A stretch of 37,940 bases of DNA from an uncultured Polynucleobacter sp. GTDB lineage: Bacteria; Bdellovibrionota_B; Oligoflexia; Oligoflexales; RGVZ01. The stretch lies in contig CAZUYQ010000035.1 in the NCBI GenBank assembly GCA_964624705.1, positions 1,599-39,538 on the forward strand, given 5' to 3'. Each line of letters opens with the position of its first letter. The stretch's first letter is position 1. Below, piece after piece: positions 6,541-22,236 of this stretch. The translations under genes were made by a program, and so were the position numbers. The notes under the pieces were generated by a model. The model had not been told where the DNA came from. It made no database searches and worked only from the letters and a program-made list of their open reading frames with translations.

Positions 6541-9399
6541 ATGTCTATACATCGGCATGCGGATTCATCCGCTGACTTAGATGGATCCATGACCATTTGC
6601 GATGCAATCGAACATGTAAGAGGATATCTATCCTCACAGGGTCCCATTGATAATTTTATTCATCACAATACGTTTCACCACTTCGAACATGTTGCGTTTG
6701 AAGAAGCTGTCGAGCATGTTGCTCATTTGCTTAGAGCGGAACCATATCTTGCTCACGAAGAGTTTTGCGAAGCATGGCGGCGCGGTCGCATCACGGATGC
6801 AGATGTCGACGCTGAATTAACCCATCGGCTCGGTGCAACACCCCCGACTGAGCATACCGACTGGCGTAAACAAATCCTTATGGCTGCCTTGCAGATTCCT
6901 GAACGCAGGGAATGCGCCCGTACAGTCCGATGGTGGCTCGAAGATGGGCGCGGACTGAAGGACTTCGATCCTGCAGTGTCTACAGGAACAAAAACAAGAC
7001 TTATTGCTCAATCTCAAGGTCAAAATGCCACAAGCGCACTAACGACGCTTTGGAATGCCGTGGAAAAAAAATTAGATGAAAATATGAAACTTGAGTCAAA
7101 CTCTTCTTCGGCTGGAATTGGTATACCTGAAGACCGCAGTCTCGGTGATATTTCGATTCGTATCGTTGCAGCTTATTTAGATCGAGGTACAGCTCAGTGG
7201 CACATGCCTGAGCGCGATCATGGCCTCTGGCACTGCATGGTACAGCTAGCGAAGTATCGCAGTCCTATTGTGCCCAATAGCGTTGATCGACTACGCCACG
7301 ATGAACGGCTTGTCCACTTAATGCAGTCAAATGGTATGTCCGCATGCGCATATCTATTGAACGAATTGGATCCCACCCGAAAGCATTGGCAAGAAATCAT
7401 CCAAAGAGAATTACTAGCTCTTCCAGGTTGGGCTGGAATGCTTGCAACGTTGGAAGAAAGAAATAGCCTTCCAGATAAAAACCGGAGCTATCCGGCTCTT
7501 GTTGACTACATAGCAGTACGTTTGCTGTTAAAACGAGATCCCGAGAAGACTGTGTTCGAGACAACATCTCAATCCCATTCTATGAATATCGCATCATTCG
7601 CTGCTCAACTTTTTCGTGTGGCACAAGTTATGGGTTTAAGCGCGCGAGATATCGAGAAAATGCCTCAGAAGCAGTGGGCCGTATTCTGCAAGACACTTAA
7701 CGAAACTTCAGACTTTATGCGGCGACGTATATTACAAGGCGCATATGAACGGTCCTATCGACAGCAGTTCTTTACGGCACTTCAGCAGAATGCTAAGCAA
7801 AAAAATTCATTGCAAACCGCACGACCAAAGTTTCAAGCCATGTTCTGCCTCGATGAACGAGAAGAATCTTTCAGACGTCATCTGGAAGACTGTGAACCCA
7901 ATTGCATCACTTTTGGCGTCGCCGGATTTTTCGGGGTCGATATGCTCTATCATCCTCATGACGCTATGAATCCTGAGCCCTTCTGTCCGGCACCCGTCAA
8001 ACCAAAACACTTAATTAAGGAAAGACTAGTCCAGCCGAGAACAAAATTTCAGAAAATCACGCCCCAGTTTAAGAGCACGCTTAAATTGGCACGCAACCGT
8101 TTCTGGGGAGCACCACTATTACCGTCTGCTGCACTTATCGATTCATCGCGACTCTTCTTAAACGTGCACTGGTCAGGCGAGCTGATGCGTATCGGTAGAA
8201 AGCTTCGCCCTATCAAACAAGGCCCCACGGAACTTTCTATTTCCAGATCTGGCGAACAAGACCAACAAGTCGAACTTTCTCATGGTTATACAATTCTTGA
8301 AATGGCAGATCGCGTCGAGGCCATCTTAAGAATGGTTGGCCTTACCAGTAATTTTGCAGATTTGGTCTTTCTCATTGGACATGGATCGACCACGACAAAT
8401 AATCACTTCCAATCGGCATATGACTGCGGAGCATGCGGCGGACGAAGAGGGCAGTATAATGGCCGAGTTTTTGCTGGGATGGCAAATGATCGGAATGTCC
8501 GTGGCGAATTGCAAAAACGCGGTATCGCTATTCCTGATGACACAATCTTTGTTGGCGGCATACACGATACATGCTCTGAGTCGATTGTATTCTTTGACTC
8601 GGATGTCGAAATTCGTACTCATTTAAACAAAATAACCAATGCAGAGGATGCCTTCAATGAAGCAAGACGTAGAAATGCCCATGAGCGTTTCCGTCGCTTC
8701 GGAGATACTAGTAAGTTAAGTAAGGAACGAGCACTAAGCAAGGTAGAGACTAGAGCTCATCATGCTGCCGAAGTTCGACCAGAATATGGGCATGGCTCTA
8801 ACGCAGCATCCTTTGTCGGTCGACGATCCACAACTCGTGGATTATTCCTTGATCGTCGTTGCTTTCTGACCTCATATGATGCAGCTCAAGATCCGACTGG
8901 CAAGATCTTGAAGGGTCTCTTAAGCGCAATTATGCCGGTCTGCAGCGGTATCAACTTGGAGTATTACTTCTCACGTGTCGATAATCACACCTTCGGATGC
9001 GGCTCAAAATTACCCCATAATCTCACCTCTATGGTTGGCGTCGTTGATGGTCCTGCCAGCGATCTACGCAGTGGTCTACCTTGGCAAACTGTTGAAATTC
9101 ATGAGCCAATGCGACTCTTAACGATTATCGAAGCTGAAGTTGATTTTGTATTAAACGTACTAAATCAACTTCCGCAGATTCTCGAACAGTTCGATAAGGG
9201 TTGGGGACAACTTGCAGTACTTTCACCTAGCACTCACGAAATATTTCTAAGGGTTAACGGAGCGTTCGAAAAACAAGATTTACTGGATCCACCTGCGAAA
9301 ACACAAAATTCTCGCATGTACTACGACGGAAGAAACGATCATTTACCACCTGCAATCATTACTGCAGGGCACCTAGTGGGGGCTCCTCATGCATCCTGA
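6541..9399 (+). CDS. dabA: DUF2309/UPF0753 protein, DabA-type inorganic carbon pump subunit
   Basis: 952 aa. HHNTFHHFEH near the N-terminus. CLDEREE (Cys436/Asp438/Arg440, nt 7846-7860) and GHGS...YDCGACGG (His614, Cys629/Cys632, nt 8380-8436) match the beta-carbonic-anhydrase-like Zn-site signature of this family. RBS AAGAGG at 6530-6535. It overlaps the next gene by 11 nt. Confidence 0.85.
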   Translation: MSIHRHADSSADLDGSMTICDAIEHVRGYLSSQGPIDNFIHHNTFHHFEHVAFEEAVEHVAHLLRAEPYLAHEEFCEAWRRGRITDADVDAELTHRLGATPPTEHTDWRKQILMAALQIPERRECARTVRWWLEDGRGLKDFDPAVSTGTKTRLIAQSQGQNATSALTTLWNAVEKKLDENMKLESNSSSAGIGIPEDRSLGDISIRIVAAYLDRGTAQWHMPERDHGLWHCMVQLAKYRSPIVPNSVDRLRHDERLVHLMQSNGMSACAYLLNELDPTRKHWQEIIQRELLALPGWAGMLATLEERNSLPDKNRSYPALVDYIAVRLLLKRDPEKTVFETTSQSHSMNIASFAAQLFRVAQVMGLSARDIEKMPQKQWAVFCKTLNETSDFMRRRILQGAYERSYRQQFFTALQQNAKQKNSLQTARPKFQAMFCLDEREESFRRHLEDCEPNCITFGVAGFFGVDMLYHPHDAMNPEPFCPAPVKPKHLIKERLVQPRTKFQKITPQFKSTLKLARNRFWGAPLLPSAALIDSSRLFLNVHWSGELMRIGRKLRPIKQGPTELSISRSGEQDQQVELSHGYTILEMADRVEAILRMVGLTSNFADLVFLIGHGSTTTNNHFQSAYDCGACGGRRGQYNGRVFAGMANDRNVRGELQKRGIAIPDDTIFVGGIHDTCSESIVFFDSDVEIRTHLNKITNAEDAFNEARRRNAHERFRRFGDTSKLSKERALSKVETRAHHAAEVRPEYGHGSNAASFVGRRSTTRGLFLDRRCFLTSYDAAQDPTGKILKGLLSAIMPVCSGINLEYYFSRVDNHTFGCGSKLPHNLTSMVGVVDGPASDLRSGLPWQTVEIHEPMRLLTIIEAEVDFVLNVLNQLPQILEQFDKGWGQLAVLSPSTHEIFLRVNGAFEKQDLLDPPAKTQNSRMYYDGRNDHLPPAIITAGHLVGAPHAS

Positions 9400-10684
9400 T
9401 ACCATTCAATACATCCTTACTTGTGTTATTGCCTTGCCGCTCTGCACAGCACTCCTACTTGCGTGGTCAGGATCTTGGCGTAAACCTTTTGGCGAAGCCA
9501 CAATCGCGGGCGTGACGGCAAGTGTGTTGTGGACTAGCTTCGCAGTCGCTATTGGTCTGACTTTTTTAAAGCCAACGACATTTGATGGAATATTTCGCTA
9601 TGACGCCATTGCTGCTGTTTTTACCATCCTTACGGCATTTGTTACGGCTCTCACAGCATCCTTTGCAAGACGCTATCTTCACGGTGATTCAGGATTTCTT
9701 CGCTTTTATTGTTTTTTGCTAGCTTTAGCTGGTGGCAGTTACACTGCTTTCTCTGTGACTGAAAATTTACCTCTCATCGCGGGCTGGGAATGTGTTGGTC
9801 TGAGTTCATTTTTATTGATTGCCTATTTTTACAAACGTGCACGCCCACGAGATCACGCCATTTTGGTATTCGCTTGTTACCGCATCGGTGACGCGGCGCT
9901 TATGATTGCCTGTGCTTTAGCTGCTATCGTGAGCACTGAAAGCAGTATCCCTGCAAGTACGCTTGTTATTTGCTGTATTATTGCTGCCGCTGCATGCAAA
10001 TCAGCGCAACTACCCTTTTCCTTCTGGCTTCCTCGTGCAATGGAAGGACCGACACCATCAAGTGCCGTGTTCTACGGAGGGGTTTCCATTCATCTCGGAT
10101 GCTTTCTGTTATTAAGGACGGAGCCTTTGTGGGCAGGTCACTGGTGGGCTCATACAGCTATTGTTGCTATCGGATTGACTTCGCTCCTCTACGCTTGGAT
10201 CTCAGGTCGGACCAGTAGCGATGTGAAAACGAAATTAGCTTATGCAACCATCAGTCATATCGGTATGGTATTTGTCGAGATTGGCCTTGGTTGGAACATT
10301 TTAGCACTTATCCATGTTGCAACTCATGCCCTTGTTCGCACACCGCAGCTCCTACTCGCTTCGTCTGCTCTAGCAGACTATCTACAAGAAAGGCGCACAA
10401 AGGGCTCTGCAATAAAAGAGTTAGGATGGGAGAATAAATTACCTTCGAGAGTAAGTTGGAAGCTTTATCGATTTGGCCTAACTCGCGGTAACCTCGAATC
10501 CTGGATACGATTGATTATCGTTCAGCCTTTTGAATCCTGCGTTAAATTCTGCAATAGCATTGAAAACTTCATGGAACGTTCTTTAGCTGCGGAAGATCGA
10601 GATGCGACAACTCAGGAAACAGGGCAACATGACAGTCGCCACGAGCAGTTCTTTGCTGAAAATGCAAAAGGAGGATCTTTATGA
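9389..10684 (+). CDS. dabB: NuoL/MrpA-like proton-conducting membrane subunit (DabB-type partner of DabA)
   Basis: Polytopic membrane protein with the antiporter-core motif CKSAQLPFSFWLPRAMEGPTPSSAVFYGG. The distal segment YRFGLTRGNLESWIRLIIVQPF resembles the NuoL GFD.LY...F..PF region. It ends in a hydrophilic tail. Confidence 0.8.
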   Translation: MHPDTIQYILTCVIALPLCTALLLAWSGSWRKPFGEATIAGVTASVLWTSFAVAIGLTFLKPTTFDGIFRYDAIAAVFTILTAFVTALTASFARRYLHGDSGFLRFYCFLLALAGGSYTAFSVTENLPLIAGWECVGLSSFLLIAYFYKRARPRDHAILVFACYRIGDAALMIACALAAIVSTESSIPASTLVICCIIAAAACKSAQLPFSFWLPRAMEGPTPSSAVFYGGVSIHLGCFLLLRTEPLWAGHWWAHTAIVAIGLTSLLYAWISGRTSSDVKTKLAYATISHIGMVFVEIGLGWNILALIHVATHALVRTPQLLLASSALADYLQERRTKGSAIKELGWENKLPSRVSWKLYRFGLTRGNLESWIRLIIVQPFESCVKFCNSIENFMERSLAAEDRDATTQETGQHDSRHEQFFAENAKGGSL

Positions 10685-10851
10685 ATGTTCCATTGATTCT
10701 TAGTACTATTATGGTTGTTATCGCCACCGCGATGGCAGCAAAAATTGGTGTATCTCGTAGCGAGGGTTTGAGCATGTTTGCCATCGCCGGGCTCACATTC
10801 GCTACGACGATCTATACATCTCGCCTTCACCGCAAGCATGGTTTCAGATAA
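10681..10851 (+). CDS. Small two-TM membrane protein (56 aa), not in the supplied ORF track
   Basis: The ATG overlaps the dabB stop (ATGA at 10681-10684). Strong RBS AAAGGAGGA at 10667-10675. Translation: MNVPLILSTIMVVIATAMAAKIGVSRSEGLSMFAIAGLTFATTIYTSRLHRKHGFR. Confidence 0.5.
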   Translation: MNVPLILSTIMVVIATAMAAKIGVSRSEGLSMFAIAGLTFATTIYTSRLHRKHGFR

Positions 10852-10895
10852 ACCCATTCATCACGCTAGCTTTCTGGTTCGCAACCAGTCTTCCT

Positions 10896-11786
10896 ATGTT
10901 TATCAAGCAAGATCCTAGAGATTCTCAAGCCGCAACTCATAGCAAGAGAGTTTTTATACTGATCGAGGCTGCTTCTATCATTGCATTTGCTATTGGATGT
11001 TTACGCGGAGAAAGTAGTGTCGCGGGGCGCTTTGCTTTTGTAACGGCTGCATTTCTCCGCTTCGGGATTTTTCCATTTCACTTGGGAAGTGTCGGTTTTA
11101 TTCAAAATGCATCGTTAAGTGTGAAGATAACGCATCTTATAAATATATTGACTGCTATTACCGTTAGTTCTTCTTACCTAGTATCATTGCTAACGGACAC
11201 AGGATTGACCTCTAGTGCTATTAATTTCTTCCTGGTTTCTGCAGGATTTTTCGCTTTTGTATGCTGTGCACAAACACAATTTCGTCGCATGCTCATATTC
11301 GGCGTTTTCTCTTCTCTAAGTATTGCGATGGCATCCTTAGCCGCTTCCTCGAGTGAACATGTCATGCATGCAGCTTGGGCTATGGCGATCAATACAATTA
11401 TTGCGGCGGGTGCAGCATTTCTCTGCGAAGATGCCATTCAACGCCGCATCGGCACTCCCAATGCCTCGCAAATGCAAGGTTTAGCAACGTCTATGCCAGT
11501 ACTAGGTGGATTCGCTCTGGCTTCATTGCTGGAATTTGTTAACGCACCATTAAGTTGGGGATTTCACGCCGAGGAAGTCGCTATCGGAGCTTTATTTGAA
11601 AGATCGTCGTATGTCGGTTCTATTTCTGTATTTATATGGGCTATCCTTACTTTTGCGTTGATTAGGAATTTTGCAAAACTGTTTTGGGGACCTGCAAATC
11701 CAAAACCCTCAATGCAGATAGACCTCAATTGGAGTGAGCGCTGGGCGCTATTGACACTGGTTGTGTTAATAGTACTGCCGCTATGA
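10896..11786 (+). CDS. Second, degenerate antiporter-like (NuoN/NuoM-like) polytopic membrane protein
   Basis: About 8 TM segments. LRFGIFPFHLGSVGFIQNAS resembles the FPFH.W.P motif of Proton_antipo_M subunits. No obvious RBS. A hydrophobic reading continues upstream of the ATG in the same frame. Confidence 0.55.
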   Translation: MFIKQDPRDSQAATHSKRVFILIEAASIIAFAIGCLRGESSVAGRFAFVTAAFLRFGIFPFHLGSVGFIQNASLSVKITHLINILTAITVSSSYLVSLLTDTGLTSSAINFFLVSAGFFAFVCCAQTQFRRMLIFGVFSSLSIAMASLAASSSEHVMHAAWAMAINTIIAAGAAFLCEDAIQRRIGTPNASQMQGLATSMPVLGGFALASLLEFVNAPLSWGFHAEEVAIGALFERSSYVGSISVFIWAILTFALIRNFAKLFWGPANPKPSMQIDLNWSERWALLTLVVLIVLPL

Positions 11787-12978: not shown

Positions 12979-13734
12979 TTATTCCCTATAAATCATTTTG
13001 CGAGACATCCCGCCATCGACCGTAAACGACTGACCCGTTATGAAACCAGCTGCCTCGGAAGCAAGATAAACGACAAGCGAAGCAATATCCTCCGGATAGC
13101 CGACACGTCCCACCGGGTGCTGAGTATGCGCCGATTTAGATAAGGGTTCTTGATCGCGGTTATCGCGTGTATCTATCCATCCCGGTCGAATGGCATTCAC
13201 TCTAACTTCTGGCCCGTAAGTGATTGAGAGCGCATGAGTAAGAGCCTCGATCCCCCCTTTTGCCGTGGAGTATGTCTCCGTATTTGATTCTGACATGAGG
13301 GCCCGAGTGGACGAAATATTTATAAGACTACCCTGCCTGAGCTTGAGTAGCGGTAACGCATGCTTCGCACCGAGGAAATAGCTCGTGAGATTCACTCCAA
13401 GCCGTCTATTCCATTCTTCCAGACTCATATCGGTAATTAGCGGTTGGTCGAGATTCGCAATTGCCGCATTATTAACGAGCAGGTCGACGCCACCAAATGA
13501 TCTGCGGCAAAGATCAACTAACCCAATCATATCGGCTTCTATTGAGACATCCATAACGAGGACACGGACATCACCTAGTTGTGATAAATTTTTTATCGCA
13601 TTTTCGCAGCCTTTTCCATCTTTGTCGCCAATGACAACACCATATCCGCAGTGTAGCAACGCTTCAGCAATCGCGTATCCAATTCCTCGAGCACCTCCAG
13701 TAACGATTGCTGATTTCTTTCCCATTTTTTCCAT
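12979..13734 (-). CDS. Short-chain dehydrogenase/reductase (SDR) family oxidoreductase
   Basis: TGGARGIGYAIA (cofactor loop), NNAAI, and catalytic YSTAKGG (YxxxK). I prefer ATG 13734 (MEKMGKKSAIVTGG, GGGGA RBS upstream) over the track start at 13788. Confidence 0.85.
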   Translation of the reverse strand: MEKMGKKSAIVTGGARGIGYAIAEALLHCGYGVVIGDKDGKGCENAIKNLSQLGDVRVLVMDVSIEADMIGLVDLCRRSFGGVDLLVNNAAIANLDQPLITDMSLEEWNRRLGVNLTSYFLGAKHALPLLKLRQGSLINISSTRALMSESNTETYSTAKGGIEALTHALSITYGPEVRVNAIRPGWIDTRDNRDQEPLSKSAHTQHPVGRVGYPEDIASLVVYLASEAAGFITGQSFTVDGGMSRKMIYRE

Positions 13735-13844
13735 ATGAGATCCCCATTTGTTTGAAGTCGAAGTTATTATTAGCGAAAGCTCATTCAATGTCTATTGCGC
13801 CTTTAGCGAGCCGCAAGATACAATCTTTTCATCCGAGGCCGAAC

Positions 13845-13869
13845 ACTATTCAAACGATCTAAGAATAGT
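13845..13869. promoter_or_regulatory. Candidate LysR-type (T-N11-A style) binding dyad in a divergent promoter region
   Basis: ACTATTC (13845-13851), an 11-nt spacer, then GAATAGT (13863-13869): a perfect 7-bp interrupted dyad between the SDR gene and the LysR gene. Confidence 0.45.
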
Positions 13870-13901
13870 TTTTGTAAGGCTATTTTTTAAGAGAAAATAA
13901 A

Positions 13902-14753
13902 ATGAACTTATACAATCTCAAATACTTTGTAGATGCAGCTAAATTAGGAAGCATGTCCGCTGCAGCAGATTTAAATCGCCTAAGTCGCCCGGCCATTAGT
14001 CACGCTATTCGAAAATTAGAGTCAGATCTCGACGTGGCACTCATCAAACATAAACGGCGGTCTTTTGAACTGACAGCGGCAGGTCAGTCGTTGTTAGCGA
14101 CGTCACAAGGATTACTTGACCACTTAGATACCATGAAGGACGAGCTAAAACAGGCTCATTCTAATCCAAGTGGAACCTACCGTATCGGCTGCGCTCGAAC
14201 TCTTGCAACCTTTATGCTTCCACAGGCACTGGCAAAACTGCGCGAGCAGTTTCCAAAGGTACAATTTAAGATCATCATCGAAAACTCCGAAAACTTGGTG
14301 ACATTGCTTGAAAGTAAGAAAATAGATTTGGCATTATTTGTTGGGGACGATAGTCTTCATGGATATGTAGAGAAAATTATTGATCGCGGGCATTTCATGC
14401 TTATTAAGCCGCGATCGAAACTCTATCCATCCCTAGGTTATGCCATGACAGAACGTCGTCCCGAAACAGAGCGTGTCAAAGCACTTTTCAAGCGGAAATT
14501 TTCTGAAGAAATCCTTGTTTTTGCGGAGATCCCAAGTTGGGACGCTATTTGGCACTGGACAGTACAAGGAATTTCTGGGGGATTAGTTCCAAGTTTCCTA
14601 TTACTACAGAGCAAAAATAAAGATCGCGTTGAAGTCGTCATCCCGAAGGTATTTCCCTACGAAGTAAAAGCACTCTATTCAAAAACGCGAGCTCACGATG
14701 TCGTCATCGAAGGTTTAATACATTGTTTGCGACCATTATTAGAAAAGAAGTAA
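13902..14753 (+). CDS. LysR-family transcriptional regulator
   Basis: N-terminal wHTH LKYFVDAAKLGSMSAAADLNRLSRPAISHAIRKLE followed by a roughly 200-aa substrate-binding-like domain. Divergent from the SDR gene. Confidence 0.85.
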   Translation: MNLYNLKYFVDAAKLGSMSAAADLNRLSRPAISHAIRKLESDLDVALIKHKRRSFELTAAGQSLLATSQGLLDHLDTMKDELKQAHSNPSGTYRIGCARTLATFMLPQALAKLREQFPKVQFKIIIENSENLVTLLESKKIDLALFVGDDSLHGYVEKIIDRGHFMLIKPRSKLYPSLGYAMTERRPETERVKALFKRKFSEEILVFAEIPSWDAIWHWTVQGISGGLVPSFLLLQSKNKDRVEVVIPKVFPYEVKALYSKTRAHDVVIEGLIHCLRPLLEKK

Positions 14754-14760
14754 GATCGTA

Positions 14761-15462
14761 CTAAATCGTTTTCGCATAGATTAGTGTCTCAATTTTTTGA
14801 TAGCACTCACCAAAATTTGACACATCAATCCAATGAATATTGGGATACTCTGAAAAAAGAGCCAATTGTCGATCTTTATAGATCAAAGCTCGCTTCAAAA
14901 TTTCTGATTTCGCCTCATGGAGACTCAATTCTCCATCTATGAACCTGACAGTTGGCACAGCTGCATGGCACTCTTTTATTAAATAACTATTCCGATACTC
15001 CGATAATTTCGCTGCCAGTTCCTCGACTAGACCATCATTGAAAGCCTGATCAATACGCTTTCGATATCTACCAGCAGTGTCAAATTCGGCGGGAAATCTT
15101 AAACCAATCACGTGTTTGAAAAGATTCTTCTTAGCATTTAGGGCTAGCAGGGCTGGGACGTAAACAGTGGATCCACCCTCAACAATTGGAATCCTCCCAG
15201 AAGCCAAAACTTCTGAACCGACCCTATCAACCATCTTTATGAATACATCTGCAGAGAAAGATGGTTCATCGGGTTCAAGCATTTCGTATAGATAGCTTGG
15301 CACATTCTGTTCCATTAAAGTATCTTGTAGTCCTGTCGCAATTGGAAAATGCTTATAAAGATAGGCCCGATCTACATTAATAACGGCTCCGTTGCTCCTT
15401 CGAGCCAATTCGTAGGCAATTTTTGTTTTGCCAGTTCCGCTTGGACCAATGATCATGATCAT
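14761..15462 (-). CDS. IPT/Tzs-family (adenylate isopentenyltransferase-like) P-loop protein
   Basis: 233 aa. P-loop IIGPSGTGKTKIA. VINVDRAYLYKHFPIATG and IPIVEGGSTVY match, from memory, the Tzs/IPT pattern GPT.SGKT...V.LDR.Q..P.IATG.....ILEGGS. The ATG overlaps the stop of the upstream ThiC-like gene (ATGA). Confidence 0.65.
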   Translation of the reverse strand: MIMIIGPSGTGKTKIAYELARRSNGAVINVDRAYLYKHFPIATGLQDTLMEQNVPSYLYEMLEPDEPSFSADVFIKMVDRVGSEVLASGRIPIVEGGSTVYVPALLALNAKKNLFKHVIGLRFPAEFDTAGRYRKRIDQAFNDGLVEELAAKLSEYRNSYLIKECHAAVPTVRFIDGELSLHEAKSEILKRALIYKDRQLALFSEYPNIHWIDVSNFGECYQKIETLIYAKTI

Positions 15463-16520
15463 TGTAAAGTCGCCTTTGCCCGTTGGCCAAGGACGTTTTC
15501 TAGCTTCATCATCGGATATTTAATATTGCGTAGCGGGCAATGAAATCCGCACATACTACAAATTTGAGGATCGCCTTCCAACGGGCCAAAAAGATTTACT
15601 CCAGTGGTACATTGATTTGATTGATTCTGGAATCGATCTTCATGATGAATAGTTTCAAGATCTCCGTTCGCAAGATTCATATTGTGCTTAAAGACTAGTA
15701 CGGTATCGACACCACTTTTAAGCGCGTCAAGAGTTGGAAGACGAATATGTTCATCACGCGTAAGCAGAAGATGGGTATGAATTTTCTTTTGTGAATTCAG
15801 GACGCTCGCTCCAATGATAGATGACAGATCGTCAAACGCATTTGTAGCGTCTGTCATGAGCGGTCCCATAACACATATTTGATTGTCTTTAATGGTCTCC
15901 ACGAAAGTTGAGAGAAGCGATGCATCGAGATGACCGCCGCACTCCAAGATATACTCATCTTTTCGAACATCTTGCTCATTCATAAATGCATTAATAAAAT
16001 CCAACTCTTCACGCCACAGGTTGCTGCGCTTTGATTCGACAACACGGCCAGGGCGTAACGAAGTACCGACAAACAATTCACAATTATTTTCACGAATAAA
16101 AGCCATCATTTCTTGAAAATCCTCGAAATGAGGGTTCTCCAGCTCATTCTTGGCGAGTCCAAATAAAAAATTTCCTGCCCTTGAATTAATGACGAACTGT
16201 TGCTCAATTGCCGCTCGTATTAAATGTTTGGGAGTCAGATGAAGGGTGAAGCATTTCACACCAAATGAATACTGATGTTTGATGACCTCGAGAATCGGCT
16301 TCCTGGTTAATACAGCATCATAAAGGGGAACGGTGCAAAAGCGCGTTGACTTGTGATCGAGCGACTTTATAAATTCAAGAATTTCCTTTTTCTTTTCAGG
16401 GATAAGCGATATTTCCGAAATGTAATCGACCTGCCTGGACAATGCATATCTTATCTTATCCTTCTCAGTTTCAACCTTGTCCATCCTGTTAGAACATCCA
16501 ACGTTCACCTTAACCTTCAT
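15459..16520 (-). CDS. ThiC-family (HMP-P synthase / BzaF-like radical-SAM superfamily) protein, N-terminally minimal
   Basis: From Met59 of the track ORF. MKVKVNVGCSN vs ThiC VKVNANIGNS. CTVPLYDAV vs GTVPIYQAL. CFTLH vs YFTIH. SLRPG vs GLRPG. ECGGH vs EGPGH. GPLMTD vs GPLTTD. TRDEHIRLP vs TPKEHLGLP. C-terminal CSMCGFHC (15537-15560) vs CSMCGPKFC. ATG 16520 is preceded by a GGGGG RBS. Confidence 0.75.
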   Translation of the reverse strand: MKVKVNVGCSNRMDKVETEKDKIRYALSRQVDYISEISLIPEKKKEILEFIKSLDHKSTRFCTVPLYDAVLTRKPILEVIKHQYSFGVKCFTLHLTPKHLIRAAIEQQFVINSRAGNFLFGLAKNELENPHFEDFQEMMAFIRENNCELFVGTSLRPGRVVESKRSNLWREELDFINAFMNEQDVRKDEYILECGGHLDASLLSTFVETIKDNQICVMGPLMTDATNAFDDLSSIIGASVLNSQKKIHTHLLLTRDEHIRLPTLDALKSGVDTVLVFKHNMNLANGDLETIHHEDRFQNQSNQCTTGVNLFGPLEGDPQICSMCGFHCPLRNIKYPMMKLENVLGQRAKATLQ

Positions 16521-16532
16521 TAAGCCCCCATG

Positions 16533-16551
16533 TAGCGCAGATCTAGCGCAG
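16533..16551 (-). promoter_or_regulatory. Tandem direct repeat in the leader of the ThiC-like gene
   Basis: Plus-strand TAGCGCAG (16533-16540), atc, TAGCGCAG (16544-16551). On the coding strand this is CTGCGCTA-N3-CTGCGCTA, with 11-bp periodicity, ending 12 nt upstream of the ATG. Confidence 0.35.
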
Positions 16552-16665
16552 GTTTTGGGGAAACTAGCAGCATTACATAGTAGATAAAAGTACATTAAAT
16601 TAATATTTAAAGTTAAAATATTTAACCTAAAAACTGCGGGTATTACGCTCGAGTTTATAACGAAA

Positions 16666-18762
16666 CTATTGAGGTTGGAGCTTCTTTGCATCACGTGGGT
16701 TGATTTTGAATACCTGATATAAGCAATGCCCTTCCAGAATTAAGGCAGGAATATGTTTTCTTGGGACTTCACCTGTTGCGACTGTATTATCTAAATCTCC
16801 AAACTCAATGATCTCAGGCATAACAACCACTTCTTTAATAAAAAATTCTACGCCTGTAGTCAAAGAATCGTCGATTCGCTCCAAGAGCGAACGCGTCTTC
16901 TTTTCTAAAAAGAGATTGCCACCGTTAATGATAGAATTTAGTGTGCTTTTTGCGAGTGTCAATTTGCCACTACGCGCATAAGCGAGCGCCAAATTATAAC
17001 TGATGGCATCATAATTTTTATCTCCCGGTCCTATCGCCTGCAGAGTCGACTGATACAGTGAAATAGCTTCTTCTATCTTACCGGTTTTGGTAAGCGCGAC
17101 TCCACGGTTATTCATATCGGCGATTAAGGGTTTCAGAGAACTTAATTTTCCAAAAGCCGCTCTGGCTTTGTCAGGCTCTCCCTCTTCTATCGCAATCGAA
17201 GCCTCGGTTTTAGCTATAATGTCACTGTTTGGATCTATCTTTTTGACGCTTGCGATGATTCCCTCAGCAGCCTTAATGTTACCATCTGTTTGATAACTTA
17301 GCTTTGCGATTTCACAGGCCCTACTAATATTCATCGGCGAAATCGACTGCGCCACTTCAAACGCCTTGAGGGCCTCGCTGAACTGACCCAACTTCAAAAA
17401 TGATTTACCCAGTAATGTTAAACTCGCGGTCTTGTCGTGAGACTTTAAGATCGAGGTGTTTGCAAACTTCACGGCGGAATCGTAGTCGCCCGCGAAATAA
17501 GCCGATAGAGCTTCGATTAAGAACTTGTCGCCTTCGCGGCAATCTTCATGATTTCTAAATTTATGTATGAGTTCTTGAGCTTCTTGCGTTCTACCTTCAC
17601 TAAAATAGTAATTTATTTTCCGATAAATACTAGCGAGGTTTAAGGGAATCTTTTCCTGACCAATGCCCCAAACAAGCCTCTTTAAGAAGTCCTTACGACC
17701 AACTGGTTTTTCGATGATCAAATCGACCCCCATATCTCGCAGCAATGGTAGATCAGAGGACTTAATCTGAGAACTCACGATTCCGATGATCACGCGTTGA
17801 TGGCCCGCACCTCTAATGCGCTGGACAATTGCAGCCCCATTTATTTTAGGAGTCCGCCATTCTAATAAAATTAAATCCGGCTCCGGATTGATATTTAGCC
17901 ATCTCTCCGTTTCTTCGGTACTAGCACAAATCTTTACTTCTTTGACGCCCGAAAGTTTAAGCAGTTCCGTGATTTGACTTTGAGCCGACTCATCGGAGTC
18001 GATAACTATCGCAAGGTCGAGATGAATGGCGCGTCCCCTCGACTCCTCATCCATTGTAGAGTTTTCAATTTTTTTACTGTAACGCTTCCGCAGCCCGTAG
18101 ACGGCTTGCTTTGACTCTTCATCAAGCAAAGTCACTTGATTTAAAGTTTGCCAGCCTTTCTCAACATGACCGCATAGAAGGTATGCTTCCGCTAAAGTAA
18201 TTAAAATGCCCGTATCAACTGGCAATACTTTGTGTAGATTTTGTTCTAGCCCAAGCAAAGATTCGAAGCAATGGAGCTCAATCAATAACTTACGTAAGTA
18301 GGAAGCGGCCGTTTTAATTTCTGAGCCGTTGCTTTTCTTTAAAGTGGCAAATAGTTCGTTAAATTCAGCAACCAGAATAGCATTCTGATCGCTCAAAGGA
18401 TGCCAAGAAAACAAACCCAACTCAAATGCTACAGGTAAAATGCGTTGTTCGTCCGGTAAGATGAAAACACTTATCGTCGGCACGTGGGAATTCTGCGTCA
18501 CATCGCGAAGCAGCCCTAACATCCGCTCGCCCTCGCCGGACGCGCACGCTACAACTAGCCAATCAGCAGGCATGGACGCACATGCCGCAAGACAAGAGGC
18601 AACGTCAGACGTCTTCTGAACATTTTTAAACTCGAGTGCAGCAAGAGCAGAAGTCAGGTTGTTAACTTGGGTTATATCACCTAAGCCAAAAACCACCACT
18701 TTTGCAGTGCGTTCCGAAATAGATTTTTCAAATAGGCTTACCATCTGGTCGAAGACCCACAT
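16666..18762 (-). CDS. Dual receiver-like domain / TPR-repeat protein (atypical response regulator)
   Basis: The N-terminal CheY-like fold (KVVVFGLGD...LVVACASG) lacks canonical acidic residues. The second REC (about 17668-18018) has DSDE, LILLEWRTP (Glu301 at the phospho-acceptor position, nt 17860-17862), IVSS and IIEKP. The C-terminal half is TPR-like (e.g. YNLALAYARSGKLTLAK). Confidence 0.7.
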   Translation of the reverse strand: MWVFDQMVSLFEKSISERTAKVVVFGLGDITQVNNLTSALAALEFKNVQKTSDVASCLAACASMPADWLVVACASGEGERMLGLLRDVTQNSHVPTISVFILPDEQRILPVAFELGLFSWHPLSDQNAILVAEFNELFATLKKSNGSEIKTAASYLRKLLIELHCFESLLGLEQNLHKVLPVDTGILITLAEAYLLCGHVEKGWQTLNQVTLLDEESKQAVYGLRKRYSKKIENSTMDEESRGRAIHLDLAIVIDSDESAQSQITELLKLSGVKEVKICASTEETERWLNINPEPDLILLEWRTPKINGAAIVQRIRGAGHQRVIIGIVSSQIKSSDLPLLRDMGVDLIIEKPVGRKDFLKRLVWGIGQEKIPLNLASIYRKINYYFSEGRTQEAQELIHKFRNHEDCREGDKFLIEALSAYFAGDYDSAVKFANTSILKSHDKTASLTLLGKSFLKLGQFSEALKAFEVAQSISPMNISRACEIAKLSYQTDGNIKAAEGIIASVKKIDPNSDIIAKTEASIAIEEGEPDKARAAFGKLSSLKPLIADMNNRGVALTKTGKIEEAISLYQSTLQAIGPGDKNYDAISYNLALAYARSGKLTLAKSTLNSIINGGNLFLEKKTRSLLERIDDSLTTGVEFFIKEVVVMPEIIEFGDLDNTVATGEVPRKHIPALILEGHCLYQVFKINPRDAKKLQPQ

Positions 18763-19119: not shown

Positions 19120-20043
19120 CTACTCCTGAAGTGTGCGACGAATCTGTTCCCTAAACCAACTGTGAGCAGGGTCTTGGTTATTTCGTTCGTGCCATACTTG
19201 AACAATCGTAATGTTGGGAATCTTTATTGGAAGCGGTAACATATTGATGGGAAATGCTTGATTCATTTGTTTAATCAAACGAGATGGTCCGGTAAAAATA
19301 GAATCTGTTTCACGAATAATCCAGGCCGCACTCATAAATGCATTCAGTCCTGCGATAATATGACGTTTGCGTTTTTTCTGCTTCAGTAGATCATCGATTC
19401 TGCCGTGAAGCTCGCCGCCGGGCGCTACTAGTATATGTGTTTCTTCACAGAATTCATCTAGAGAAAGTTGGCTCACCCCCTTTAATCGAGGATGATCTTT
19501 GCGAACAGCACATGCAAACGAATCAGAAAAAAGTTTTTGTTGATAGAATCCATCCGGGAGATCGCCGAAGAAACCTGCAACTGCGATATCGCAAATCCCC
19601 CGCTCTAAGTCCTCCCGAGGAAGGGAAAAGGACATGGAACGACTTACCATCTGAGTGTTGGGCGATTCTGTCCGAATAGTTCGCAACAATGGCGGGAATA
19701 AAAGGCTCTCGATTAAATCTGTCGTATAAACTCTAAAAACTCGCTCCATAGTCTTAGAATTAAAATTTTCCTGTCCTAGCACGTCCTTTGTAAAGTTCGT
19801 CAACAAGTGACGGATAGGGTGCGAAAGTTGTTCGGCCCTGGGCGTTGGCACCATTCCCTTCGACGATTTCACAAATAACTGATCCTTGAATGCCAAACGC
19901 AGGCGACCCAACGCATGACTTAAGGCAGATTGGGTAATTCCTAGAACTTTGGCAGCTTTAGTTATGTGTCTTTGGTCATCAATTGCGATAAACACTGCCA
20001 ATAGATTGAGATCAAACTTCTTAATTTTATCAATATTATCCAC
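19120..20043 (-). CDS. LysR-family transcriptional regulator
   Basis: FDLNLLAVFIAIDDQRHITKAAKVLGITQSALSHALGRLR wHTH plus an effector-binding-like domain. Divergent from the SnoaL-like gene. Confidence 0.85.
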   Translation of the reverse strand: MDNIDKIKKFDLNLLAVFIAIDDQRHITKAAKVLGITQSALSHALGRLRLAFKDQLFVKSSKGMVPTPRAEQLSHPIRHLLTNFTKDVLGQENFNSKTMERVFRVYTTDLIESLLFPPLLRTIRTESPNTQMVSRSMSFSLPREDLERGICDIAVAGFFGDLPDGFYQQKLFSDSFACAVRKDHPRLKGVSQLSLDEFCEETHILVAPGGELHGRIDDLLKQKKRKRHIIAGLNAFMSAAWIIRETDSIFTGPSRLIKQMNQAFPINMLPLPIKIPNITIVQVWHERNNQDPAHSWFREQIRRTLQE

Positions 20044-21611: not shown

Positions 21612-21701
21612 TGGCGGAGAGGGAGGGATTCGAACCCTCGTTACCCGTGAAGATAAACCAGATTTCGAATCTGGCGCATTCAACCACTCTGCCACCTCTC
21701 C
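21612..21701 (-). tRNA. tRNA-Ser (anticodon CGA), long variable arm, encoded CCA
   Basis: Reverse complement reads GGAGAGG-TG-GCAGAGTGGTTGAATGC-G-CCAGA-TTCGAAA-TCTGG-(variable arm TTTATCTTCACGGGTAAC)-GAGGG-TTCGAAT-CCCTC-CCTCTCC-G-CCA. The acceptor and anticodon stems pair perfectly. Confidence 0.92.
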
Positions 21702-21717
21702 GTATTGAAGTGGAAAC

Positions 21718-22236
21718 TTACTTATCACTCTCATCGTCAACAACAGTGGTTGATTTGCTTTGACGACGCCTGCGAAAGAATTCTTTGAGAATTTCAGAAC
21801 ACTGTTCAGCAAGGACCCCAGGTTGTACCAAATAACGATGGTTAAGGCGAGCATCTTCATGCACCTGATAAAGGCTTCCGCACGCCCCTGCCTTTGGGTC
21901 CATTGCTCCAAACACAACCCTTGGTATCCGTGCCTGATAAATAGCCCCTGCACACATCAAGCAAGGCTCTAAGGTCACATACAGTGTAGTGTCACTCAAA
22001 CGCCAAGCATTGGAATTTTTTGCACCTTCTTGGATTGCCATGATTTCGGCATGATGTAACGGATCGCGGTTTGTTTCCCTTAGATTCCATCCCTCACCAA
22101 TAATTTTACCGTCCTTAACAAGGACAGCGCCTACAGGAACCTCATCTAAATCTGCCGCTTTTTTAGCCAAGACGAGCGCTCGCTGCATAAATTTTTCGTC
22201 TAAAGTTTGATCTACTGTCGACGTTGATTCTTTCAT
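21718..22236 (-). CDS. tadA: tRNA adenosine(34) deaminase
   Basis: CDA-fold Zn motifs HAEIMAI and [10 protein letters not shown]. 172 aa. Confidence 0.9.

Follow-up and report, generated by a model that had tools for sequence, protein, structure and literature searches.

A LysR-linked gene pair of Bdellovibrionota predicted to join a ThiC-superfamily radical SAM enzyme to a nucleotide prenyltransferase

What would a bacterium make with a relative of the thiamine enzyme ThiC whose gene overlaps that of an isopentenyltransferase (IPT)? The question is raised by a 37,940-nucleotide stretch of DNA (henceforth referred to as 'the window'; positions 1,599 to 39,538 of contig CAZUYQ010000035.1, assembly GCA_964624705.1, an uncultured Polynucleobacter sp. 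of GTDB lineage Bdellovibrionota_B; Oligoflexia), which carries such a pair on its minus strand. An earlier reading of the letters alone (henceforth referred to as the original prediction) had proposed that the two enzymes yield a rearranged and/or prenylated nucleotide product. From the family membership, residue conservation, gene linkage and cis-acting box that we observed, we infer, with moderate confidence, that the two genes form a LysR-controlled operon which would turn a ribonucleoside-5'-phosphate-type precursor into a small molecule that is so far undescribed and probably prenylated. Judged from the sequences, this product would most likely be none of vitamin B1, vitamin B12 or a classical cytokinin. 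The features in question are:

14761..15462, minus strand: predicted stand-alone IPT-family prenyltransferase, 233 aa, ATG start
15459..16520, minus strand: predicted ThiC-superfamily radical S-adenosylmethionine (SAM) enzyme of a distinct clade, 353 aa
15459..15462, minus strand: ATGA stop/start overlap of the ThiC-like and IPT-like genes, read in the junction sequence

The junction reads TTA CAA TGA in the frame of the ThiC-like gene and ATG ATC ATG ATC ATT GGT CCA in that of the IPT-like gene, the ATGA being common to both, as originally described. The mechanical list of open reading frames (ORFs) gives minus-strand frames at 14761-15462 and 15459-16694, the latter from a GTG at 16694 that would make the ThiC-like gene overlap its upstream neighbour. 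The correct start codon is the ATG at 16520 (MKVKVNVGCS...), which had been assumed and is now backed by a preceding ribosome-binding site (GGGGG at 16529-16525) and by the 17 clade homologues (341-360 aa), all of which can be aligned from residue 1.

The ThiC-like protein matched the ThiC_Rad_SAM family PF01964 with an E-value of 1.9e-34 (119.6 bits, cut-off 25). Its AlphaFold2 (AF2) model (predicted local distance difference test, pLDDT, of 86.8) found the ThiC structures 4s26 and 3epn in a Foldseek search at TMq 0.70-0.74, the best being 4s26 at 0.74. The N-terminal ~60-100 residues of short ThiCs are absent, and the C-terminal cluster motif C321-x2-C324-x3-C328 is of the CX2CX3C form, with the spacing of short archaeal ThiCs. 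The original prediction had this protein aligning motif for motif with ThiC and BzaF. All the motifs it listed are indeed present (KVNVGCS at 4-10, TVPLY at 63-67, FTLH at 91-94, LRPG at 155-158, GGH at 195-197, GPLMTD at 219-224, EHIRLP at 257-262 and C321/C324/C328), but the agreement ends at the residues that contact the base and at the Cys that is catalytic in the formation of hydroxymethylpyrimidine phosphate (HMP-P), all of which are replaced.

These positions can be read against well-characterized enzymes, with residues numbered as in Arabidopsis thaliana (At) or Caulobacter crescentus (Cc) ThiC. In At ThiC the phosphate is contacted by R386, Y286, S342 and H322 and the ribose hydroxyls by N228 and E422, D383 bonds the imidazole N3 and Y449 stacks on the amino group of 5-aminoimidazole ribotide (AIR), the second metal is held by H426 and H490, and SAM is contacted by E489, L259 and M572 (PMC4389238). 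The mutants D383A (At) and C474S (Cc) make no HMP-P (PMC11117688). In an alignment of the 17 clade members with 12 sister and 19 canonical sequences, the metal-site residues H197/H258 and the SAM contacts E257/M323 of the window protein are invariant in its clade, and the ribose-5-phosphate anchor (N6, Y67, H94, S113, R114, R156 and E193) is kept in 17/17; in Cc numbering, the residues kept by all 17 are N219, Y277, H313, S333, R334, R377, E413, H417 and H481. Four others are replaced in every member (Cc D374→T, Y440→C, M248→S and C474→L), leaving the window protein with a remodelled base pocket of S35, T153, C216 and L251. Thus, Thr153 stands where an Asp bonds the imidazole N3 (At D383, Cc D374), Cys216 where a Tyr stacks on the amino group (At Y449) and Leu251 where the catalytic Cys is found (Cc C474), each in 17/17. 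The positions of Cc N222, G272 and G414 are Cys in the clade. An auxiliary metal or Fe-S site built from the clade-invariant C9, C62, C194 and C216 was considered and not adopted, as C9 and C194 are unconserved in the sister clades; C194 is also expected, from strand alternation, to face away from E193. The residue pattern suggests a competent-looking ThiC-type radical SAM enzyme with a ribose-5-phosphate substrate, and one that would be neither an HMP-P synthase nor a 5-hydroxybenzimidazole (HBI) synthase. The replaced base contacts and catalytic Cys strengthen the idea of a new product.

The same evidence bears on whether the pair could be a merely diverged thiamine pyrimidine synthase (or vitamin B12 lower-ligand synthase) that happens to sit beside miaA. 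One public source does label homologues 'phosphomethylpyrimidine synthase' and 'tRNA A37 N6-isopentenyltransferase MiaA', both Pfam domains are present, and with ThiC (EC 4.1.99.17) the window protein shares the fold, the C-terminal Cys motif, the two-His second metal site, the SAM contacts and the ribose-5-phosphate anchor. However, it lacks the N-terminal domain of ThiC, forms a separate clade in which both residues that mutagenesis showed to be essential for HMP-P are replaced in 17/17, and scores 3- to 11-fold under the equivalog cut-offs (ThiC models NF009895, 121.9 bits vs 410; TIGR00190, 93.3 vs 460; NF006763, 69 vs 650; BzaB model TIGR04386, 60.5 vs 700). A thiamine pyrophosphate (TPP) riboswitch and thi genes are the typical, though not strictly defining, context of thiC; Rfam searches of the window, of 16400-16800 (E≤1) and of five related loci gave no match to a TPP or other riboswitch, and no thi, cob or LOG genes were found among the window ORFs scanned, the lack of a LOG-like product having been remarked before. 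Further, the clade is carried by only 3/185,579 species, and its IPT-like partner is without a tRNA-binding domain. BzaF and BzaA-BzaB offer a closer analogy, in that a ThiC paralogue turns AIR into a different heterocycle, a precedent for new products in the superfamily. BzaF itself departs from ThiC at only about three of the positions in contact with AIR, and its residue in place of the Asp is Asn (PMC12661338). The window clade, in contrast, has Thr there, so that position 374 is neither the Asp of ThiC nor the Asn of BzaF, together with four further pocket changes and many more differences from ThiC than BzaF shows, and BzaF-like sequences lie on another branch. A housekeeping role is therefore, in our view, extremely improbable.

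The IPT-like protein matched the IPPT family PF01715 (E 1.8e-16, 61 bits, cut-off 23.6) and, weakly, the IPT family PF01745 (23.5 bits, cut-off 20). It carries the originally noted P-loop (GPSGTGKT at 6-13, G6-T13), D31-R32...PIATG and EGGS (95-98) motifs. Its AF2 model (pLDDT 92.9) resembles the MiaA cores 2qgn, 3crm and 3exa most closely (TMq 0.82-0.87), followed by a plant adenylate IPT (0.77) and Tzs (0.69), with nucleoside monophosphate (NMP) kinases at only ~0.45; the 233-aa protein therefore groups with isopentenyltransferases and not with unrelated P-loop kinases. By phmmer, residues 1-107 and 131-215 align to MiaA 9-114 and 212-296. Since residues 107-131 thereby span MiaA 114-212, about 75 residues of the tRNA-binding insertion ('swinging') domain are missing, and the architecture is that of a MiaA-type P-loop core with C-terminal helices. 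The IPT catalytic triad is Thr10/Asp33/Arg138 in Tzs and T19/D42/R217 in MiaA, with Asp as general base, Arg binding the diphosphate and Thr contacting the bridging oxygen of dimethylallyl diphosphate (DMAPP) (PMC8234997). Both D31 and R136 are invariant in 19/19 clade members, and R136, in alignments to 3d3q and 2qgn, is the second Arg of the R..R motif and the equivalent of MiaA R217 and Tzs R138. In having R32 directly after D31, the protein shows the 'DR' motif of bacterial adenylate IPTs (cf. PMC8234997).

The original assignment to the Tzs type stands for the short architecture and the DR motif, but overall the protein is nearer to the MiaA core than to Tzs. With Tzs, Tmr, FasD and the recently described TvAPT it has in common the short two-domain build, the P-loop, DR, the diphosphate-binding Arg and EGGS, and it differs from such adenylate IPTs in its weak PF01745 match, in its TM of 0.69 to Tzs, in having Ser/Asn for the P-loop Thr and in being partnered with a radical SAM enzyme, with no LOG partner in the window. 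MiaA followed by MiaB offers another comparison, in which one adenine-type nucleotide is acted on first by a member of the IPT family and then by a radical SAM enzyme; there, the substrate is tRNA and MiaB has a classical CX3CX2C motif and is unrelated to ThiC. We considered whether the window pair might likewise modify RNA, the IPT-like protein prenylating an adenine in tRNA or another RNA that the ThiC-like enzyme then modifies further. The nearness of sequence and fold to MiaA cores, and one jumbo-phage locus in which an Rnl1-type RNA ligase and a phosphoesterase are encoded close to a ThiC-like gene, would suit such a role. However, the ~75-residue insertion with which MiaA grips tRNA is absent, the miaA equivalog TIGR00174 is matched by the N-terminal half only and under its cut-off (93.7 bits vs 148.65), the DR motif belongs to free-nucleotide IPTs, and the ThiC-like partner keeps a complete pocket for a mononucleotide 5'-phosphate. 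We regard RNA modification as very unlikely, and the IPT-like protein as a putative free-substrate prenyltransferase derived from the MiaA lineage. Overall, the pair would resemble ThiC and BzaF in its radical chemistry on a ribotide and adenylate IPTs in the prenylation of a free amine, but it fails the defining tests of ThiC, BzaF and MiaA, and fits an adenylate IPT only loosely.

The two genes belong together beyond the window. A word-indexed search of 5.8 billion proteins returned a tight clade of ~18 ThiC-like proteins (53-98% identity), the next matches being archaeal ThiC at 27%, and a matching clade of ~20 IPT-like proteins (36-93% identity) that lie largely on the same contigs. At every bacterial locus of the clade with readable downstream sequence (the window; L001/L007, from the metagenome-assembled genome SG_bin7; L002; L003-L005; L008, from an Oligoflexales metagenome-assembled genome; L009, from Bdellovibrionaceae UBA5009; and a JGI contig) the IPT-like gene comes immediately after the ThiC-like gene, and tblastn of both proteins against all loci confirmed the adjacency. 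The 4-nt overlap recurs in L001, L002, L008, L009 and the JGI contig, and an 11-nt gap takes its place in L003-L005. All paired bacterial loci are Bdellovibrionota/Oligoflexia-type metagenome sequences. The 3/185,579 species given above are species-representative genomes, to which a metagenome scan added only a few further loci. With the exception of a LysR regulator, flanking genes vary between loci; the operon is self-contained and confined to a handful of Bdellovibrionota/Oligoflexia lineages. Searches of the full-text literature turned up no account of the ThiC-IPT pairing or of the phage ThiC-kinase module discussed below, in agreement, as regards the pairing, with the original prediction, to which no pathway coupling the two families was known. 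The pairing is also absent from a 2026 study that mined genomes for non-canonical adenine prenyltransferases.

Two single loci depart from this picture. The most distant IPT-like relative (L006:1529-2221, 36% identity, on a 5.8-kb contig of 33% GC from assembly GCA_024449895.1) has no ThiC-like gene and lies beside a ClpB-type gene, so the IPT-like clade is not always paired. At L005:392-1452 the ThiC-like gene is split into two frames (99 aa + 254 aa); it is intact in the otherwise identical L003 and L004, and an error of assembly or a frameshift variant is the probable cause of the split.

The regulatory elements associated with the pair are the following:

13902..14753, plus strand: LysR-family regulator, a conserved partner, orthologous to the LysR at four other loci
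16588..16598, minus strand: conserved upstream box TTAATGTACTT (consensus TTAATKYACTT), which begins 78 nt ahead of the ThiC-like start codon
16521..16665, minus strand: AT-rich intergenic leader/promoter region, 145 nt, holding the GGGGG at 16529-16525

At L001, L002, L008 and L009 a LysR gene precedes the pair in divergent orientation, and its product is 46-48% identical to the window LysR. The window gene is instead downstream of the pair, in convergent orientation, the stop codons being 7 nt apart; evidently the LysR gene or the operon was relocated relative to the other loci and the upstream box stayed with the ThiC-like gene. Exactly one copy of TTAATKYACTT is present per record, on the coding strand, in the 11 locus records of the Bdellovibrionota clade (~8 independent contigs), and throughout it precedes the ThiC-like start by 62-85 nt; the whole 37.9-kb window has a single copy vs 0.11 expected by chance. 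In L001 and L002 the box belongs to an AAAGT-N11-ACTTT dyad, which has the form of a LysR site. We therefore take it as a candidate LysR/promoter element, and LysR control together with the conserved box indicates inducible expression of the operon. A promoter/terminator scan of the leader gave counts that were not above those of shuffled controls and is thus uninformative.

The ThiC-like clade has its nearest relatives in T4-like and jumbo phages. An exhaustive HMMER search of 1.84 billion representative proteins gave 14 clusters (50% identity) at E<1e-30. Those beyond the window clade are N-terminally short ThiC-like proteins from AT-rich sources, with 31-36% identity to the window protein, and four of these have a fused C-terminal P-loop domain. 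The fused domain was rejected as an IPT: hhalign aligned only a 25-residue P-loop with the IPT-like protein, and the motifs (GxPxSGK, sxGDyxR, IIDNPxK and RxxRxDD) are adenylate-kinase-like. A homologue search with a sister-clade profile found three proteins, and few sister contexts are readable. In the phage sister loci, which come from a T4-like phage and from jumbo-phage contigs, the ThiC-like protein is fused to an adenylate-kinase-like P-loop domain or has one encoded beside it:

L010:10001-11472: ThiC-like/kinase module of a T4-like phage (Portal_T4 and gp2), followed by a 149-aa P-loop kinase
L012:2703-4325: ThiC-like locus
L013:5995-9523: ThiC-like module of a 259-kb IMG/VR jumbo phage, with an NMP-kinase-like gene, a metallophosphoesterase and an Rnl1-type RNA ligase
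L016:4998-6098: ThiC-like locus on a 326-kb contig, with a metallophosphoesterase nearby

In a neighbour-joining tree the window clade groups with the phage clades and apart from both ThiC (pocket signature M-D-Y-C) and BzaF-like sequences (T/S-N-F-C); a tree that would show whether the protein forms a separate clade had been suggested in the original prediction. The phage pockets share the core S/T/C signature of the window clade, in proteins without an IPT. Neither window protein matched PHROGs; tblastn against 50,697 phage records found ordinary ThiC only (22-24% identity), a BFVD fold search gave nothing at E<1e-3, and a scan of IMG/VR with the window clade found nothing. The phage ThiC-like/kinase module appears to be undescribed and absent from GenBank phage records, PHROGs and BFVD. 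It resembles viperin and the prokaryotic viperins, in which a radical SAM enzyme acts on a nucleotide and a nucleotide kinase is adjacent or fused. Viperin, however, has a classical radical SAM fold, dehydrates CTP and has no sequence relation to these proteins, and the partner in the window is an IPT and not a kinase. Elsewhere in the ThiC superfamily, many further clades (P0074-P0208) keep the ribose-phosphate/metal scaffold residues Y277, H313, S333, R377, E413, H417 and H481 invariant and carry other pocket signatures, such as M-T-M-N, x-x-R-T and T-x-G-S; the variety of signatures suggests that several more uncharacterised reactions may exist in the superfamily.

The phage relatives bear directly on which enzyme would act first. 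In one scheme the IPT-like protein would, as Tzs does, make N6-isopentenyl-AMP from AMP and DMAPP, and the ThiC-like enzyme would then modify it by radical chemistry on the ribose, on purine C2/C8 or on the side chain, giving a modified cytokinin-type signal and a free-nucleotide counterpart of MiaA followed by MiaB. The Asp/Arg machinery and DR motif of bacterial adenylate IPTs are kept, the smaller pocket residues (Tyr→Cys, Met→Ser, Asp→Thr) would admit a base larger than aminoimidazole, and the retained contacts to the ribose diol and 5'-phosphate would suit AMP or isopentenyladenosine 5'-monophosphate (iPRMP). Set against this, the phage sisters have the same pocket signature without an IPT, so the substrate of their ThiC-like enzymes is probably no prenylated nucleotide; the ThiC-like gene or domain always comes first; no LOG or cytokinin-oxidase genes lie near the pair in the window; and the host organisms have no known plant association. 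Prenylation as the first step is the main alternative to the pathway that we favour, and we consider it unlikely.

A role in conflict can also be envisaged, in which an operon acquired from, or exchanged with, phages would make a nucleotide analogue directed against prey or phages, by a logic like that of viperin with a nucleotide kinase. Such a role would be compatible with the chemistry that we favour. The closest relatives are phage genes with NMP-kinase-like domains in DNA-metabolism neighbourhoods, the spread is extremely patchy (3/185,579 species, and the 14 clusters among 1.84 billion representatives) and the hosts belong to predatory lineages. However, neither protein has a meaningful match among PADLOC defence models, by which a known defence system was rejected, the flanks are ordinary chromosomal genes that differ by locus and show no mobile-element or defence-island signatures, the GC content is not atypical, and LysR control suggests that a metabolite, and not infection, is what the operon responds to. 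A conflict or toxin role is thus, on balance, decidedly improbable.

We favour a pathway in which the ThiC-like enzyme would first convert a common primary metabolite, after which a P-loop partner would tailor the phosphorylated product. In the first step the ThiC-like protein would act as a radical SAM enzyme, with a [4Fe-4S] cluster bound through CX2CX3C and SAM bound by way of the His/His metal site, and would anchor a ribose-5-phosphate substrate in the manner of ThiC within a rebuilt base pocket. Because the pocket is rebuilt and the H-atom-relay residue Cys474 is Leu, the ThiC route to HMP-P and the BzaF route to HBI would be closed, and a different radical transformation may take place, with AIR, or a larger base such as that of an adenine nucleotide, as its target. 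In the second step the IPT-like protein would move a prenyl group from an allylic diphosphate (DMAPP, 4-hydroxy-3-methylbut-2-enyl diphosphate (HMBPP) or a longer one) to the exocyclic amine of a free nucleotide-like acceptor. Tailoring would consist of phosphorylation in the phages and of N-prenylation in the Bdellovibrionota pair. That a ThiC-like enzyme is tied to a P-loop partner of either kinase or IPT fold, both partners being binders of NMP-like acceptors, points to a ribotide that would be transformed and then tailored. The LysR regulator and the upstream box would make the operon inducible, and its product may serve as a signal, a toxin or a cofactor.

Several observations weigh against parts of this proposal. 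The C-terminal cluster region (the last 50 residues) of the AF2 model of the ThiC-like protein is uncertain, with a pLDDT of ~50, and an invariant extra Cys (C304) lies 17 residues ahead of the cluster motif; as a fourth cluster ligand, C304 could oppose radical SAM chemistry. The position of the P-loop Thr (Tzs T10, MiaA T19) is Ser8 in the window protein and mostly Asn, else Ser or Thr, in its clade, and with this replacement the donor chemistry could differ from that of classical IPTs. That the ThiC-like enzyme acts first is weakly inferred, by parsimony from the phage relatives alone, and 7/12 sister sequences keep Cys at position 474, so that the pockets of the two groups are not identical. 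In addition, the tree is a neighbour-joining tree without support values, and the sample is small, with ~10 independent loci, all of them metagenomic.

The original prediction had also placed the cassette just downstream of an atypical receiver-tetratricopeptide repeat (REC-TPR) protein and between two LysR regulators. The flanking genes are as described, but the REC-TPR gene and the upstream LysR gene (19120-20043) are not conserved with the pair at other loci. The 698-aa REC-TPR protein (16666-18762, minus strand), encoded directly upstream of the operon, begins with ~240 residues that match nothing in Pfam, continues with a single receiver domain (252-363) and a long stretch of TPRs (377-615), and lacks an output domain. 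A short-chain dehydrogenase gene at 12979-13788, which is unconserved near the pair elsewhere, is divergent from the conserved LysR gene (intergenic region 13789-13901). The REC-TPR, short-chain dehydrogenase, second LysR, SnoaL and cupin neighbours were all rejected as pathway members, none being conserved beside the pair at other loci. More distant parts of the window carry further features of their own. At 6541-11786 (plus strand) a DabA homologue (952 aa, PF10070 E 2e-218) is followed by ORFs at 9389-10684 and 10896-11786, which both match Proton_antipo_M, with overlap between the parts of the model that they cover; a split, a duplication or a frameshift of the DabB partner may account for this. 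At 21612-22236 (minus strand) a TadA/MafB19-type deaminase gene (21718-22236) is followed directly by a tRNA-Ser(CGA) gene; the deaminase also weakly matches the Bdellovibrio 'Bd3614-like deaminase' model.

The two characterised reactions of the ThiC superfamily, the formation of HMP-P and of HBI, both start from AIR and rank among the most complex radical rearrangements known. The ThiC-like clade described here offers a concrete and cheap target in the search for a third reaction of the superfamily, as its two small genes are suited to expression in E. coli. More tentatively, and as a possibility that we hold to be rather doubtful, the window clade and its phage sisters could together represent a third branch of the superfamily with a new radical rearrangement of a ribonucleotide (possibly a purine rather than AIR), whose P-loop partner would phosphorylate the product in phages, towards a non-canonical nucleoside di- or triphosphate, or N-prenylate it in Bdellovibrionota, giving a new class of signal or toxin of predatory bacteria. 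Through its strict coupling to the ThiC-like enzyme, the free-standing IPT-like protein would carry nucleotide prenylation past cytokinins and tRNA. The NMP-kinase fusions of the phages, in turn, point to a wider nucleotide-modifying module, so far unrecognised, which could play a part in conflicts between phage and host and between predator and prey.

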